Virus record (IMG/VR): IMGVR_UViG_3300048854_000126
Span: 41,120-105,119 of that record
Source of the DNA: a virus
Reading direction: 5' to 3' (one strand)
DNA length: 64,000 bases
A program made the position numbers and the translations under genes. Each line of letters opens with the position of its first letter. The stretch's first letter is position 1. The notes below the pieces were generated by a model that was not told the DNA's origin, did no database searches, and worked only from the letters and a program-made list of their open reading frames with translations. This document shows positions 2,461 through 41,299 of the stretch, one piece after another.

Positions 2461-2668
2461 GTCATTGAAGCCGCGCCGCAAGCAAATCCCCGGTAGTGCC
2501 CGCGTGACCGGATAAACGCGCACAAATGAAAGGGTAGTAGCTGGGCGGGCCTAGCAAACGCAGACGGTGAACACGTAGAAGCTGAACCTACGCTCTCCCG
2601 CGGTCCTTGTGACCGGCATCGTATATCTGCGATGGCGCCGGATCGTTCCCGGCAGCGGCCTCAATGAC
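2461..2668 (+). ncRNA. Candidate structured non-coding RNA (~210 nt)
   Basis: 2461-2474 pairs with 2655-2668 (13/14 bp) and encloses at least five hairpins; T-run follows; strand inferred. Confidence 0.55.
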
Positions 2669-2689
2669 GTCTTTTTACGAGGAGAACCC

Positions 2690-3751
2690 ATGATCGAACT
2701 GAACGGAAAGGGCTGTCGCGTGCGCGTGATCGCCGACAGCATCGCAAATTTGCCCAATAACAAGGCGCGGATTAGCACGTTGGAGCTGCGCTACTGGCGT
2801 GCGATCCATGCCGAAGCAAAAACCCACCGCATCATCTCGCTGGGTGGCGAGGAATACGCGCTCACACAGGACGAGAGCATCATGAGTGCCACCGAGCTCT
2901 CGCGCAACGCCAGCTCGTCCCGGGCTATCCCGGTTGCCAAGATGATCGAGCAGGTCCGGAATGACCCGGCCGGCCCGATTCATTGGGGCGCAAACCAGCC
3001 TGGCATGCAGGCACAGGCAGAAGCTTCCGAGCGCGTCGTGCTGGAAGAGTATGAGCAGTTCGACAACCCATCGGACCAGCCGCTGCATCTGCTCGGCGCG
3101 GTTGAATACACCCCGCAAGAGGCGTGGCGTCAAGCTGCGTATCGCGCGGCCGACGTCGCTGAAGCCTACATGAAGGCCGGCTACCACAAGCAGGTGGTTA
3201 ATCGGTTGCTCGAGCCGTTCCAATACATCAGCGTGATCGTCACAGCAACGGAATGGGACAACTTCTTCGCGCTTCGCGATCACGCCGACGCCCAGCCTGA
3301 GATCGCGGACCTCGCACGGACCATGAAGGCGGCGTTGGCCAAGTCCACGCCGATCAAGCGCAATAACGACCGGGGCGACCCCAACAGCTGGCACTTGCCG
3401 TATGTGCTCGACAGCGAGCGCAAGCGCTATCGCGTGGACGTGTTGCAGGCCCTCTCGACGGCCCGTAACGCCCGCGTGTCGTATCTCACCCATGACGGGG
3501 CAGAGCCGCGTCCGGAGAAGGACCTGGAGCTCTACGAACGTCTGGTCGGCGCAGAGCCGCTGCACGCGAGCCCGACCGAACACATCGCGGCACCGCTCGC
3601 GCGCGGCGACGAGCAGCACAAGAACTTCAAGGGCTGGCACCAGTATCGCGGTGACGTGGAGATTCGCATCGCCCGCGCAAAGAAGTCCGCGCCGACGTTC
3701 TACTTCGACACCTATCGGCCTGAAGAAGCGCCGTTCGCAGTTCGCGCGTAA
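2690..3751 (+). CDS. thyX: ThyX-like flavin-dependent thymidylate synthase (phage type)
   Basis: HAE..THR...SRNASSSRAIP, HKQVVNRLLEPF, NFFALR..DAQPEI, HASPTEH motifs; GAGGAG RBS before ATG 2690. Confidence 0.85.
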   Translation: MIELNGKGCRVRVIADSIANLPNNKARISTLELRYWRAIHAEAKTHRIISLGGEEYALTQDESIMSATELSRNASSSRAIPVAKMIEQVRNDPAGPIHWGANQPGMQAQAEASERVVLEEYEQFDNPSDQPLHLLGAVEYTPQEAWRQAAYRAADVAEAYMKAGYHKQVVNRLLEPFQYISVIVTATEWDNFFALRDHADAQPEIADLARTMKAALAKSTPIKRNNDRGDPNSWHLPYVLDSERKRYRVDVLQALSTARNARVSYLTHDGAEPRPEKDLELYERLVGAEPLHASPTEHIAAPLARGDEQHKNFKGWHQYRGDVEIRIARAKKSAPTFYFDTYRPEEAPFAVRA

Positions 3752-3822: not shown

Positions 3823-4500
3823 ATGACGAAAGTAGCAAACACGATGGATTCAACGACCTACGCTCGCGCGGTTCTCGAAACGGAATCGAAACCGAAATCG
3901 ATCAACTTCGGACCCATGACGCTCGCGCTGGCGTTGCAGCTGGCGATCGAGACGAGCAAGGTGCTGGATCAGGTCAAGCGGGCGATCTACTACGGCAAGG
4001 ATATCGACCAGAAAATCGCCATGGGCGCACTGGAAACGATCGCCAAGCTCTCGAATGACATCGCGTTCCCGGTCGGCAGCGGTCGCTATCGCGACCCGCG
4101 CGATGCCGACTTCTACCCGAATGTGGCGCAGGAGAGCCGTCAAAACATTTCCCTGGATGCGCTGAACGTTCGCCTGTTGCACGCGGCCCTCGGCTTGCAG
4201 ACCGAATCGGGCGAGTTCATCGAAGCGCTGATGCCGACGCTGTTCGGCGGCCCGCTCGACAAGGTGAACCTGCTGGAAGAACTGGGCGATGGCCCGGGCT
4301 GGTATGCGGAAGTGGCGCTCGATGAGCTCGGCTTCACCCGCGAGCAGTGCAACTTCACGAATATCAAGAAGCTGCAGGACAAGAGGAACGGCCGCTACAA
4401 GAAGGGTGCATTCGATCCGAACGCTGCCGTCCAGCGTGACACGGCCGCCGAGCGTGGTCTGTTGGAAGACGGCGCGTCCAGCGAGCGCAAGGCTGCCTGA
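3823..4500 (+). CDS. MazG-like NTP pyrophosphohydrolase
   Basis: LHAALGLQTESGE...EELGD..WY and N..KL..RY motifs. Confidence 0.8.
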   Translation: MTKVANTMDSTTYARAVLETESKPKSINFGPMTLALALQLAIETSKVLDQVKRAIYYGKDIDQKIAMGALETIAKLSNDIAFPVGSGRYRDPRDADFYPNVAQESRQNISLDALNVRLLHAALGLQTESGEFIEALMPTLFGGPLDKVNLLEELGDGPGWYAEVALDELGFTREQCNFTNIKKLQDKRNGRYKKGAFDPNAAVQRDTAAERGLLEDGASSERKAA

Positions 4501-5126
4501 TGCTTGGCCTCTGCGGACCCCACCGAACGGGAAAGAGCACGCTCGCAAAGGCGTTCGCAGAAGCTACCGGCACACGGTATGTGCAAACCGGGGCTTCCGC
4601 AACGTTCGCGCGACTCGGTTTCGACCCGAAGAAGGACTACGACTTCGCGACGCGGCTCAAGATCCAGCGCGAGATTCTGCGTGACTGCAATGCGCTCTAC
4701 GAGAAGGCAGGGGTGCGGTTCATTACTGATCGCACGCCGATCGACTTGCTGGGCTATACGCTCGCTGACGTGACGCGCGAAAACGTCCCGCTTGCGCTCG
4801 CGGCCGGTCTGGATAGCTACATCGCCGAGTGCTACGCGTGTGTGAACCAGCATTTCACCACGCTGGTCCTGGTCCAGCCCGGTATTCCGCTGGTCGAGGC
4901 GGAAGGGAAGGCTCCGGCCAACCCTGCCTACATCGAGCACTTGAACGCCCTGATGCTGGGCTTGATGGCAGCCGAGCCGCTCGAGTGCGACCACTACAAG
5001 ATTCCTCGTGCCTGCATTGACCTGGATCTTCGAGTGGCGGCGGTCGGGCAAGCGGCGAGCCGGTCTGCGTCACGCCATGTGGCGTCGATGGCAGCGGCGC
5101 ACGAAGCAGGGCTTGTGCTGCATTAA
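4500..5126 (+). CDS. P-loop nucleotide kinase-like ATPase
   Basis: N-terminal GPHRTGKST Walker A; DRTPID motif. Confidence 0.75.
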   Translation: MLGLCGPHRTGKSTLAKAFAEATGTRYVQTGASATFARLGFDPKKDYDFATRLKIQREILRDCNALYEKAGVRFITDRTPIDLLGYTLADVTRENVPLALAAGLDSYIAECYACVNQHFTTLVLVQPGIPLVEAEGKAPANPAYIEHLNALMLGLMAAEPLECDHYKIPRACIDLDLRVAAVGQAASRSASRHVASMAAAHEAGLVLH

Positions 5127-5141
5127 ATCCGTAGGATAAAA

Positions 5142-5159
5142 TAAGTCATCGCTGACTAT
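5142..5159. promoter_or_regulatory. Operator copy
   Basis: TAAGTCA-tcgc-TGACTAT. Confidence 0.75.
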
Positions 5160-5231
5160 TGCCGATAAGAGAGAACTACACTTCAAGGTGTCGGTTCTCT
5201 CTTTAAATTCAATTACATACAGGACGTCACC

Positions 5232-5852
5232 ATGACGACAAACGTAAAGCTGAGCAATCATGCCCGCGACCGTATCATCGAAAACGCCTTGCGTGGCGCA
5301 TTCGATAAGGAAACGCAGGCGCACAAGAAGCGCATGGTCAAACTCGCCGACCAGTGCTACCGCTTCGTCGTAACCGCGGCACAGGAAAAGCAAGCGCGCT
5401 TGGCGCCGGACGATTTCCTGAACCTGTCCAACGTAACGAAGATTTACTTTAAAGACCCCGTGACCGGTTATAACCGCGACACCGTATATGAGACGGACCT
5501 TTCACGCGCGGTGCCTTTTCCAGGGCGCGGCAACTATCTGAACGTCAATGACGATGCATTGCACGCGGAATACCGGGCAATCATGGAAGCGAAATCCAAC
5601 CTGGACAACAAACTCGGCGAGCTGAAGACGAGCCTCAAGCGCACGGTCTATTCGACGACATCGCTCAAGAAGCTGATCGAGATGTGGCCCGAGGTCGAAG
5701 CGTTCCTGCCGGCTGACCTTACCGCGCCGAAGGCAATGCTGCCCGCTCTGCCAGTCGGTGACCTGAACGCAGCACTTCGTAACGCCGGCATCAAGGTCGG
5801 CGTTATAAAGCCCGCGAAAGCAACGGGCGGCTTAGTTCTCGTCGCAGCATGA
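5232..5852 (+). CDS. Nmad5-like (nucleotide modification associated domain 5) protein
   Basis: L....RD.I N-terminus; TSLKKLIEMWPE...LP...LPAL C-terminal signature. Confidence 0.6.
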   Translation: MTTNVKLSNHARDRIIENALRGAFDKETQAHKKRMVKLADQCYRFVVTAAQEKQARLAPDDFLNLSNVTKIYFKDPVTGYNRDTVYETDLSRAVPFPGRGNYLNVNDDALHAEYRAIMEAKSNLDNKLGELKTSLKRTVYSTTSLKKLIEMWPEVEAFLPADLTAPKAMLPALPVGDLNAALRNAGIKVGVIKPAKATGGLVLVAA

Positions 5853-7226: not shown

Positions 7227-7260
7227 ATCCACCCGACCGCCGATGCGCGGTCGGGAGAAT
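7227..7260 (+). promoter_or_regulatory. Hairpin-spacer element A
   Basis: ATCC-N24-GAGAAT; stem CCCGACCGC/GCGGTCGGG. Confidence 0.65.
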
Positions 7261-39055: not shown

Positions 39056-39157
39056 CTTGTCACTTTTTGGGGTTTCCCTCTTATATATACCTTTTTCTTT
39101 TAAAACCTCTTTGTTTACAGCTTTTAAAAATTAAGGGAACCCCCAAAAAGTGACAAG
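39056..39157. repeat. 24-bp inverted repeat (23/24) flanking a 54-bp AT-rich core
   Basis: CTTGTCACTTTTTGGGGTTTCCCT ... AGGGAACCCCCAAAAAGTGACAAG. Confidence 0.9.
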
Positions 39158-39366: not shown

Positions 39367-40026
39367 GTGACCGACCAGACGACAGCGCCCCAGAAGAAAG
39401 GCGGGGGCCGCACTACCGGAAGCCGATCGCTGACAGAGGCGCAAAAGGCCGAGGCCATTGCGCTCTATCAGTCGGGCGAACTGACGCTTGAGCAGCTCTC
39501 CAAGCGGTTCAACCGCACCCCGCGTGCGCTGAGCAGCATGTTCGCGAAGGCGGAGGTGAAGAAGGGCGAGAAGCGCGATGAAGTGCGTGCCGCGGTTCAA
39601 CAGCAGGTGCAGCAGCAGATGATGGGCGACGTCGGTGTCGTGGCCGCCCGCATTCGCGAGACGAAAGAGTCGCACTACAACGCCGCGAAGGTGATCGCCG
39701 GGCTGATCCAGAAGCAGTTGCTCAACGCGCAGCAGAAGGGCCAGCCGTTCGCCACCGTCCAGAACGAGATCAAGACGCTCAAGCTCGCCGCCGAGGCACT
39801 TGCCACGGTGCGTCAGGAGCGCTTCGTGATCCTGGGCATCGCCGATGGTGAGAAAGACGACAACGACGATCTGCCGGATCTCGGCGTGCATGAGATGACC
39901 GCGGAACAGATCCTTGAGATGCAGCAGCGCCAGGACGAAAGCGGGCTCGACATGGGCGACGATGACGTCATGACGGTTATGCCGCTGCCGGCGCCGGGCG
40001 AGGAAGACAGCGATGAAGCTGCGTGA
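39367..40026 (+). CDS. Terminase small subunit (probable)
   Basis: N-terminal HTH; helical core; directly upstream of terL. Confidence 0.75.
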   Translation: MTDQTTAPQKKGGGRTTGSRSLTEAQKAEAIALYQSGELTLEQLSKRFNRTPRALSSMFAKAEVKKGEKRDEVRAAVQQQVQQQMMGDVGVVAARIRETKESHYNAAKVIAGLIQKQLLNAQQKGQPFATVQNEIKTLKLAAEALATVRQERFVILGIADGEKDDNDDLPDLGVHEMTAEQILEMQQRQDESGLDMGDDDVMTVMPLPAPGEEDSDEAA

Positions 40027-41299
40027 GCCCGGACTGCCGTCGATCACAGCGATCGCCGGCGAGATGCAGACGATTTTCCTCCATCCGAAGCAGATGGAGG
40101 TCTTTCGCTCGCCGCATCGCTTTCGAGTAGTCGTCGCGGGCCGCAGGTGGGGAAAAACTCAGCTCGCCAAGGTTTCGCTCATCAAATACGCGAAGGTCAA
40201 GAACCGGCTGGTCTGGTATGTGGCGCCGTCGTATCGGATGGCAAAGCAGATCATGTGGCCGGACCTGATCGCGGCGCTGCCCAAGCGCTGGGTCAAGAAG
40301 ATCAATGAGACGACGCTCACCGTCATCCTGGTCAACGGCACGCGCATCGAGCTCAAGGGCGCCGATAACCCCGACTCGCTGCGTGGCGTCGGGGTGCACT
40401 TTCTCGTCATGGACGAGGTGCAGGACATCAACCCGGAAGCCTGGAAGAAGGTGCTGCGCCCGACGCTCGCATCGACGGGCGGCCACGCGCTGTTCATCGG
40501 CACGCCGAAGTCCTACAACTTCCTCTACGACCTGTATGCGCTCGGCCAGGAGCCAAAGAACCAGCTGATGGGCCGCTGGAAGAGCTGGCAGTTCCCGACG
40601 ATCACGTCGCCGTTCATCCCGGCGTCCGAAATTGAGGCCGCGCGCGCCGACATGGACGAGAAGTCGTTCAAGCAGGAGTTCGAGGCGAGCTTCGAGACGA
40701 TGAGCGGCCGGGTCTATTACCCGTTCGATCGCAAGATCCACGTCGGCAACTATCCGTTCAACCCATCGCTGCCGATCTGGGTCGGGCAGGACTTCAACAT
40801 CGACCCGATGAGCTCCTGCATCTTGCAACCGCAGGAAAACGGCGAGCTCTGGGTGATCCACGAGTTGTCGCTGAAGTCGTCGAACACTGAAGAGGTCTGC
40901 GACGAGCTGGAGCGGCTCTACTGGAAGCTGATGAAGCGCACGACGATCTTCCCTGACCCGGCGGGCGGCTATCGACAGCACGCTCGCGGCGAGTCGGACC
41001 TGGACATCTTCAAAGAGAAGGGGTTCAAGCACATCGTCTATCACAAGAAGCACCCGCCCGTGGCCGACCGGATCAACTCGGTCAACCGGATGCTGCGCTC
41101 GGCCGATGGGAAGGTAAAGCTCAAAGTGGATAAGAAGTGCAAGGAAGTGATCCGCGCGCTCGAGCAGACGATCTACAAGGAAGGCGGGCGCGAGGTCGAT
41201 AAGGACAAGGGCGTCGATCACATGGGTGATGCGTTGGGCTATCCGGTCCAATACATGTATCCGGTGCGCGAAGTAACGATTGCAGGCGTATCCATTTGA
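40013..41299 (+). CDS. Terminase large subunit
   Basis: HPKQ, AGRRWGKT, LRG...VMDE, GTPK, GQDFN, DH..DALGY; start could be 40064. Confidence 0.95.
   Translation: MKLREPGLPSITAIAGEMQTIFLHPKQMEVFRSPHRFRVVVAGRRWGKTQLAKVSLIKYAKVKNRLVWYVAPSYRMAKQIMWPDLIAALPKRWVKKINETTLTVILVNGTRIELKGADNPDSLRGVGVHFLVMDEVQDINPEAWKKVLRPTLASTGGHALFIGTPKSYNFLYDLYALGQEPKNQLMGRWKSWQFPTITSPFIPASEIEAARADMDEKSFKQEFEASFETMSGRVYYPFDRKIHVGNYPFNPSLPIWVGQDFNIDPMSSCILQPQENGELWVIHELSLKSSNTEEVCDELERLYWKLMKRTTIFPDPAGGYRQHARGESDLDIFKEKGFKHIVYHKKHPPVADRINSVNRMLRSADGKVKLKVDKKCKEVIRALEQTIYKEGGREVDKDKGVDHMGDALGYPVQYMYPVREVTIAGVSI

Follow-up and report, generated by a model that had tools for sequence, protein, structure and literature searches.

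Covariation supports a conserved structured RNA, possibly a processing stalk with an optional junction domain, between nucleotide-metabolism genes of Burkholderia-type phages

What occupies the 290-nt gap between the ribonucleotide reductase genes and the ThyX-family gene of this phage genome, and what could it do there? The window, meaning the whole stretch of DNA analysed (64,000 nucleotides), runs from base 41120 to base 105119 of an IMG/VR virus record that is 105,119 bp long and bears direct terminal repeats; the window has a G+C content of 60% and carries nearly every gene on the + strand. The C-terminus of the ribonucleotide reductase large subunit (10-846), the small subunit (1132-2124) and a 63-aa signal-peptide-like ORF (2208-2399) are followed, after the gap, by the ThyX-family gene (2690-3751), a MazG-like pyrophosphatase (3823-4500), a P-loop kinase-like gene (4500-5126) and a nucleotide-modification-associated Nmad5 gene (5232-5852), all on the + strand. 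The RNA element described here lies in the sole sizeable non-coding gap between nrdA/nrdB and the thyX-MazG-kinase-Nmad5 genes. The presence of MazG-like, kinase-like and Nmad5 genes (3823-5852) behind thyX suggests a DNA base-modification module, not plain dTMP synthesis.

The closest ThyX proteins bear Burkholderia names. Among the relatives discussed below, L003 encodes a ThyX that shares 98.7% identity with a cluster named Burkholderia sp. 22088, the L276 protein matches a B. vietnamiensis entry at 99.7% identity, and two of the related records are classed as proviruses by IMG/VR. No isolated phage is close, the best ThyX identity being 46%, and a DNA search of INPHARED phages and PLSDB plasmids gave no match to the element. 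The 3' limit of the gap also bears on gene annotation. The public ThyX gene call (P0001, 380 aa) begins at GTG 2609, inside the RNA element, while the start methionine of MIEL... corresponds to ATG 2690, which is preceded by a Shine-Dalgarno (SD) sequence AGGAG (2680-2684; the whole initiation site spans 2680-2692 on the + strand) and is used by all 16 close ThyX relatives. The call is probably 27 codons too long, with the true start at ATG 2690, and the automated ThyX annotation should be shortened accordingly.

The first-pass annotation of this DNA had described the gap as a multibranch RNA, closed by a long-range stem and holding five hairpins, and its quoted sequences, closing stem and hairpins are all found where it had placed them. 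In the closing stem, GTCATTGAAGCCGC (2461-2474) pairs with GCGGCCTCAATGAC (2655-2668) with one A.C mismatch, and the repeat extends outward to 2457/2672, giving 18 nt with 89% complementarity. Among 500 dinucleotide shuffles of the 290-nt gap, an inverted repeat of 13/14 was obtained once (1/500) and one of 16/18 never. However, the whole 64-kb window holds 125 inverted repeats of at least 14 nt, and therefore the repeat alone is weak evidence. Also, the folding of the single sequence exceeds that of shuffles only marginally, with z-scores of -1.95 for the + strand and -2.42 for the - strand. Given this marginal score and the many inverted repeats, the window sequence alone would not make the case for a structured RNA.

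Homologues and covariation, the check that had been proposed for this reading, gave a clear outcome, since the element is conserved at the same locus in relatives and compensatory changes are present. By ThyX searches and DNA patterns, it was found at the same position in five further loci, giving six loci with the window, and with one copy per record. Two of them carry a long form like that of the window, with an interior of ~180 nt between the two arms of the closing stem: L002 (=L130=L274, 2556-2771) and L276 (2071-2287). The other three are short forms, with an interior of 39 nt in L003 (=L099, 2712-2787) and in the near-identical L094 (- strand), and of 14 nt in L441 (=L520, 1437-1500). 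Each short form aligns collinearly with the long form, from which it differs by deletion. The nucleotide identity of the element to the window is 72.2% for L002 and 70.7% for L276, compared with 69.7-73% for thyX, so the conservation of this non-coding element equals that of its flanking genes. No alignment between relatives is obtained for other nearby stretches that are non-coding or variable, including the adjacent small-ORF region.

The distribution of the element is narrow. A covariance model (R1) found no further member in ~275 thyX loci or in four whole records, and pattern scans of IMG/VR with each arm, the domain-B core, and the hairpin plus an arm returned only the known loci plus chance matches (e.g., L521 and L522). 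The 16-mer arm patterns gave ~100 scattered IMG/VR matches, with both arms in the expected arrangement only at homologous loci; L239 and L241 carry both arm patterns without resemblance to the element. In L004, with a ThyX 57% identical, there is no gap whatever at this site. Both main clades of the ThyX tree contain long forms, with a short form nested in each, from which the long form is probably ancestral, its interior having been reduced at least twice, although these phages are mosaic and the tree of this gene may not equal the history of the element.

The gene directly after the element also differs between carriers. It is an ORF of 61-64 aa in L002 (2792-2986), L003 (2805-2990) and L276 (~2306-2490), where it lies between the element and thyX, and it is thyX itself only in the window and L441. 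This ORF belongs to no Pfam or PHROG family, and its absence from the window and L441 apparently reflects a deletion between two similar ribosome-binding regions. On the upstream side, the small secreted-protein gene is present in the window, L002, L276 and L441; in L003 (2570-2670), and likewise in L094, an AT-rich stretch of ~100 nt replaces it and only its last codons (..RRR stop) are left.

A consensus fold was obtained with RNAalifold on the three long forms (window, L002 and L276), so that the interior fold rests on only three long sequences. This consensus comprises 62 base pairs with 95.7% of the cells paired, and it contains 15 compensatory pairs, with changes on both sides of the helix; controls in which the columns were slid by 1-3 positions gave 0-3 such pairs, and none of 500 shuffles reached 15. 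The alignment folding z-score is -6.5 on the + strand, relative to column shuffles that keep the conservation and gap patterns. Based on these results, we consider it very likely that the element is a genuine RNA structure under selection. The structure as drawn in the first-pass annotation pairs 83.1% of the cells and has 6 compensatory pairs. Moreover, alignment gaps of 1, 5, 1, 2, 1-2 and 1 nt break every reading frame, which excludes a shared one and bears out the earlier statement that the gap holds no convincing ORF. A leader peptide starting from a TTG inside the closing stem was also considered and dropped: it would have 5-35 codons, no conserved sequence, and an SD that is poor or absent.

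In the predicted architecture, a four-way junction is closed by a stem of ~20 bp, here called P1, with no linkers at the junction, which differs from the five independent hairpins of the earlier drawing. The 5' strand of P1 (AGAAGTCATTGAAGCCGCG, 2457-2475) pairs with its 3' strand (AGCGGCCTCAATGACGTCT, 2654-2672), and the interior enclosed by P1 accounts for 14 of the 15 compensatory pairs. Domain A (2476-2548) consists of an outer helix (2476-2479/2545-2548) with two compensatory pairs, the helices 2482-2483/2540-2541 and 2489-2491/2532-2534, which are weak (78-83% paired), the helix 2496-2497/2526-2527 with one compensatory pair, and an apical hairpin (2501-2504/2517-2520) with three. Domain B (2549-2636) is formed by a basal helix (2549-2551/2634-2636), a long-range helix (2559-2564/2626-2631) paired in 100% of the cells with two compensatory pairs, being CGCAGA/UCUGCG in the window and CGCGCA/UGCGCG in L002, an invariant bulged helix (2565-2570/2596-2600; ACGGTGAAC and CGCTCTCCCG), and two hairpins, 2574-2578/2588-2592 and 2601-2605/2611-2615, with one and two compensatory pairs, respectively. 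Finally, hairpin P8 (GCCGG-loop-CCGGC, 2637-2653), stacked beside the 3' strand of P1, is 100% paired, shows three compensatory pairs (G-C/A-U, G-C/C-G and A-U/U-A), and is retained in the 39-nt short form of L003 and L094.

This architecture keeps some of the helices first drawn and replaces others. The hairpins at 2501-2520, 2574-2592 and 2601-2615 are conserved with covariation. On the other hand, GCTGGG/CCTAGC (2540-2555) and CATCGTA/TGCGATG (2617-2634) are 61% and 70% paired in relatives, and three long-range helices (2476-2479/2545-2548, 2549-2551/2634-2636 and 2559-2564/2626-2631), with 92-100% of the cells paired in each, account better for both; the two hairpins are specific to the window or alternative pairings. 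The inward GCCG/CGGC extension that had been given to the closing stem competes with the covarying hairpin P8. In the same way, GTGACCGG does occur twice in the window, but neither the duplication nor the alternative pairing built on it is conserved in L276, and the pseudoknot or switch suggested from it was rejected.

Around and below the junction lies a core that all six loci share: the blocks TAGTCG..CCA...TTGAGAAT, a GC-rich hairpin, a spacer, both arms of P1, and the RBS. The 5' strand of P1 is invariant save one position across the three long and three short forms. P1 has 19-22 helical positions in all six loci, with a duplex energy of -17.8 to -27.4 kcal/mol (-27.4 for 2457-2475 paired with 2654-2672), one mismatch near its base, and a conserved A.C mismatch or 2x2 internal loop 6-8 bp above. 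Its basal pairs differ by lineage: the window has AGA/UCU, L276 and L003 have UGAAG/CUUCA, and L441 has AGAGGU/AUCUUU, which includes two G.U pairs, as well as a compensatory C-G to U-A change in P1. The base of P1 is placed 8-12 nt upstream of the RBS of the next cistron (8 nt in the window), and in the predicted ensemble the SD remains accessible with P1 formed, with an unpaired probability of 0.55-0.81 and a mean of 0.59 in the window.

The GC-rich hairpin (GGTCGGGC-N5-GCCCGAC(C), 2429-2448 on the + strand) is present in all six loci and is not followed by a U-tract on either strand; it could either protect the 3' end of the upstream message or form the 5' terminus of the downstream one. 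Type I-C CRISPR repeats have a GC hairpin followed by AUUGAAAC at a spacing of ~4 nt. Mimicry of such a repeat was considered and dropped, the spacing here being 12-18 nt and the window having AUUGAAGC. Four nucleotides upstream of the hairpin there is a GAGATT box (2420-2425 on the + strand), which is GAGAAT in all five relatives and may, as a lead only, be a -10-like element. It resembles the hexamer of an ATCC-N24-GAGAAT family found elsewhere in the window, but without the ATCC and ACATCG parts. Cassettes of that family, with the form (A/G)TCC, 24 nt with a GC hairpin, GA(G/A)AAT, N5 and ACATCG, precede small ORFs at 7227, 17770, 18459, 19473, 19871, 22231 and 25057. A scan around the element predicted no sigma-70 promoter, and a scan of 2100-2900 found no intrinsic terminator; the TTTTT that had been pointed out after the element is there, but it is specific to the window. 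Also, of a lambda-type boxA only the 6-mer CGCUCU matches, partly paired and absent from the short forms, and this candidate was rejected.

As the first-pass annotation had indicated, this conserved multibranch RNA matches neither tRNA, tmRNA nor any Rfam family. Searches of Rfam 15 with the window and with four relatives were negative at the gathering score and also at relaxed E values (up to 10 on the window), and none of its curated riboswitch aptamer models was matched. The sole sub-threshold match was to SorX, on the - strand of L441 only, with 27 bits against a gathering score of 46.6, and was driven by the GC hairpin.

The explanation that we prefer, though tentatively and at something short of even confidence, is that the element is a lineage-specific structured RNA in which P1 would serve as an RNase III-type processing or stability stalk within an mRNA, carrying an optional structured RNA. 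Long duplexes in rRNA precursors and in the mRNAs of lambda (including the N leader), T7 and T3 are substrates of RNase III (PMC5371410; PMC4807359), whose minimum duplex is ~22 nt (PMC5371410). Such a stalk is proposed because P1 is a length-conserved, mismatch-bearing, two-turn duplex, probably on the sense strand, located between cistrons and before a free RBS, and enclosing an RNA that can be lost. According to this proposal, an RNase III-like nuclease specific for double strands would cleave P1, and the cut would separate an upstream message, ending in the protective GC hairpin, from a downstream message beginning just before the free RBS. In the long-form phages, cleavage would also release the interior as a discrete folded junction RNA of ~190 nt. 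The discrete ncRNA of the first-pass annotation is possible in this way, with the interior cut out at the stalk, although no terminator of its own was found. Alternatively, were the GAGAAT box a promoter, the GC hairpin would stabilise the 5' end of the transcript and P1 would be processed as part of a leader, an arrangement that would resemble the lambda N leader.

A comparison with described RNase III signals (T7 and T3 R sites, the lambda N leader, and the 16S and 23S stalks) shows that these share with P1 an irregular two-turn duplex with internal mismatches. The phage sites have in common with it a position between cistrons or in a leader and directly upstream of an RBS, together with, if the + strand is the one transcribed, a place on the sense strand, and the rRNA operon stalks a duplex formed from sequences flanking a large folded RNA. 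The lambda pL (N) leader has a small upstream hairpin, a long stalk, and then the SD, a layout that the element may resemble. However, P1 has no sequence similarity to any described site, its cargo is a 180-nt four-way junction that can be lost, and its sequence is conserved far beyond the needs of structure-only recognition.

In favor of the processing stalk, P1, the GC hairpin and the RBS were kept while the interior shrank, and the length of P1 was held though its basal pairs differ between lineages; the free SD, the missing terminator and the + strand orientation of all neighbouring genes also speak for it. Four points weigh against it. First, the near-100% identity of both P1 arms exceeds what RNase III is known to need for recognition, and would fit a sequence-specific protein partner at least as well as RNase III. 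Second, at 19-22 positions, P1 is borderline relative to the duplex of ~20-22 bp or more expected for RNase III, lying at this minimal length and not clearly above it. Third, a better fold is predicted for the - strand, as detailed below. Fourth, the fold of the interior has the support of three long sequences only.

The conservation of P1 leads to a somewhat unlikely alternative, namely a protein-binding translational operator or leader, in which a phage or host protein bound to the P1 stalk with its internal loop would govern how ribosomes load onto the leading gene of the downstream operon, with the interior as an accessory scaffold. Both P1 arms, including the unpaired A.C position, are invariant while the interior drifts, the core is kept where the interior is lost, and the base of P1 lies inside the 30S footprint of the RBS, all of which would be consistent with an operator. 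Nonetheless, no candidate RNA-binding protein was identified, the 61-64-aa ORF having no Pfam or PHROG match and being absent from the window and L441, and no repeat of the operator is found elsewhere in the genome.

If, instead, the junction were the product and P1 only presented it, the element would be a stand-alone or excised trans-acting ncRNA, cloverleaf- or tRNA-like, such as a mimic or a decoy; we regard this as unlikely. The interior helices are under selection in three diverged phages, as their share of the compensatory pairs indicates, and the upstream GAGAAT box could be a promoter. In common with tRNA, the tmRNA tRNA-like domain and YrlA, the paired ends form a conserved stem, the helices meet in a four-way junction, and a hairpin (P8) abuts the 3' strand of the closing stem, as the T arm abuts the acceptor stem. 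However, ARAGORN predicts no tRNA or tmRNA gene in the window, and P8 lacks the 7-nt UUCRANY T loop, its loops being AUCGUUC, GUCGCA, GUCGCA and one of 9 nt. The ~20-bp P1 is not a 7-bp acceptor, and GTCTTTTTACG, not CCA, comes after it. For a Y RNA of the YrlA type, no Rfam model matches, Ro/TROVE (PF05731) is absent from the 105-kb genome while it was found in control genomes, and the phage has no RtcB gene. Moreover, there is no terminator, and the interior is dispensable in L003, L094 and L441. The roles as decoy, sponge or ribozyme that the first-pass annotation had offered for such an RNA found no support.

A further alternative, which we consider quite improbable, places the RNA on the other strand, as an antisense sRNA directed against the operon, with a long hairpin, a C/U-rich linker, and the GC hairpin as a terminator. 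In each of the three long forms the predicted fold is 5-12 kcal/mol more stable on the - strand, which is also the more stable one in L003, its alifold z-score is -8.0 (versus -6.5 for the + strand), the conserved A.C mismatches of P1 would become G.U pairs, and the sub-threshold SorX match in L441 lies on this strand. In contrast, all neighbouring genes are on the + strand, and the GC hairpin has undergone two independent wobble changes (U.G in L002, G.U in L276) for which only the + strand allows pairing. The two G.U pairs at the base of P1 in L441 likewise require the + strand, and of the one-sided changes in the interior consensus, six keep pairing only on the + strand and two only on the - strand. 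Also, the tail behind the GC hairpin is not a U-tract, and the site for a - strand promoter is not homologous between the window, where it would lie in thyX, and the relatives, where it would lie in the small ORF. Taken together, these features suggest that the RNA is probably read on the coding (+) strand.

A metabolite-sensing riboswitch for thyX or the dNTP genes, which includes the cis-switch dedicated to thyX of the first-pass annotation, is very unlikely. As in riboswitch leaders (THF, purine and ZTP), a multi-helix junction-type fold closed by P1 lies beside the RBS, 5' of nucleotide-metabolism genes; the invariant segments of the bulged helix in domain B are flanked by covarying helices, and a CUCUCC segment could pair with the SD. 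However, no known class matches and no generic expression platform is recognizable, the SD being free in the predicted ensemble and a terminator being absent. An aptamer core common to all carriers is also lacking, since the interior, where the putative aptamer would lie, has been cut down to 39 nt in L003 and L094 and to 14 nt in L441, relatives that otherwise seem intact. The free SD, the missing terminator, the change of the downstream gene between carriers and the dispensable interior together make a thyX riboswitch unlikely. Moreover, riboswitches usually show the opposite of what is seen here, where P1 is invariant and the inner helices vary.

Finally, an element acting as DNA (a MITE-like insertion, an invertible segment, or an origin or protein-binding site) is hardly credible: although it has 18-bp terminal inverted repeats around ~180 bp and exists in long and short forms, there is one copy per genome in an orthologous position, the arms are not a dispersed repeat in the window, no target-site duplication or flanking direct repeat is visible, no AT-rich unwinding region is present, all three long forms carry the interior in one orientation, the short forms arose by collinear deletion and do not hold alternative cargo, and internal compensatory changes are not expected for a promoter or a transposon interior. 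The collinear long forms and the 14-39-nt short forms argue in particular against an invertible promoter. Correia and ERIC elements likewise have terminal inverted repeats, ~200 bp, and internally deleted short forms, and transcribed stems of the Correia type can be cut by RNase III; the element differs from them in the copy number, position, lack of target duplication and compensatory selection just described.

Returning to the processing stalk, its consequences would be twofold. If the stalk is an RNase III site, it would let a large Burkholderia-type phage uncouple the expression of ribonucleotide reductase from that of the thymidylate and nucleotide-modification genes, and it would define a place for releasing small stable RNAs from an mRNA. 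A bolder and unlikely extension is that the long form represents a new class of phage stable RNA, a ~190-nt cloverleaf-like junction RNA in a conserved slot, which would be cut by RNase III from a nucleotide-metabolism mRNA via an invariant 20-bp stalk and would act in trans during infection, perhaps as a decoy that engages a host factor binding RNA or targeting tRNA, with the short forms having kept the slot only. Structured RNAs of phages are poorly catalogued, and the present element is a covariation-supported one without an Rfam family, with a modular design of an invariant stalk and an optional junction domain that has been repeatedly lost. The family is small, with six loci seen, and its general importance would be limited unless a trans function is found.

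Two minor observations concern repeats. The L002 copy has four AGTAGC motifs, at 2592, 2631, 2672 and 2713, spaced 39-41 nt; a tandem repeat or iterons were considered and rejected, TRF finding nothing, only the first two positions being conserved in the family, and the motifs not lying uniformly in loops. Elsewhere in the window, a 24-nt inverted repeat at 39056-39157, 96% complementary, surrounds a very AT-rich segment of 54 nt in the 479-nt gap before the gene at 39367; with an RNA fold z-score of -6.2, it may represent a further element of the long-stem type, or else a site of regulatory or origin-like character.
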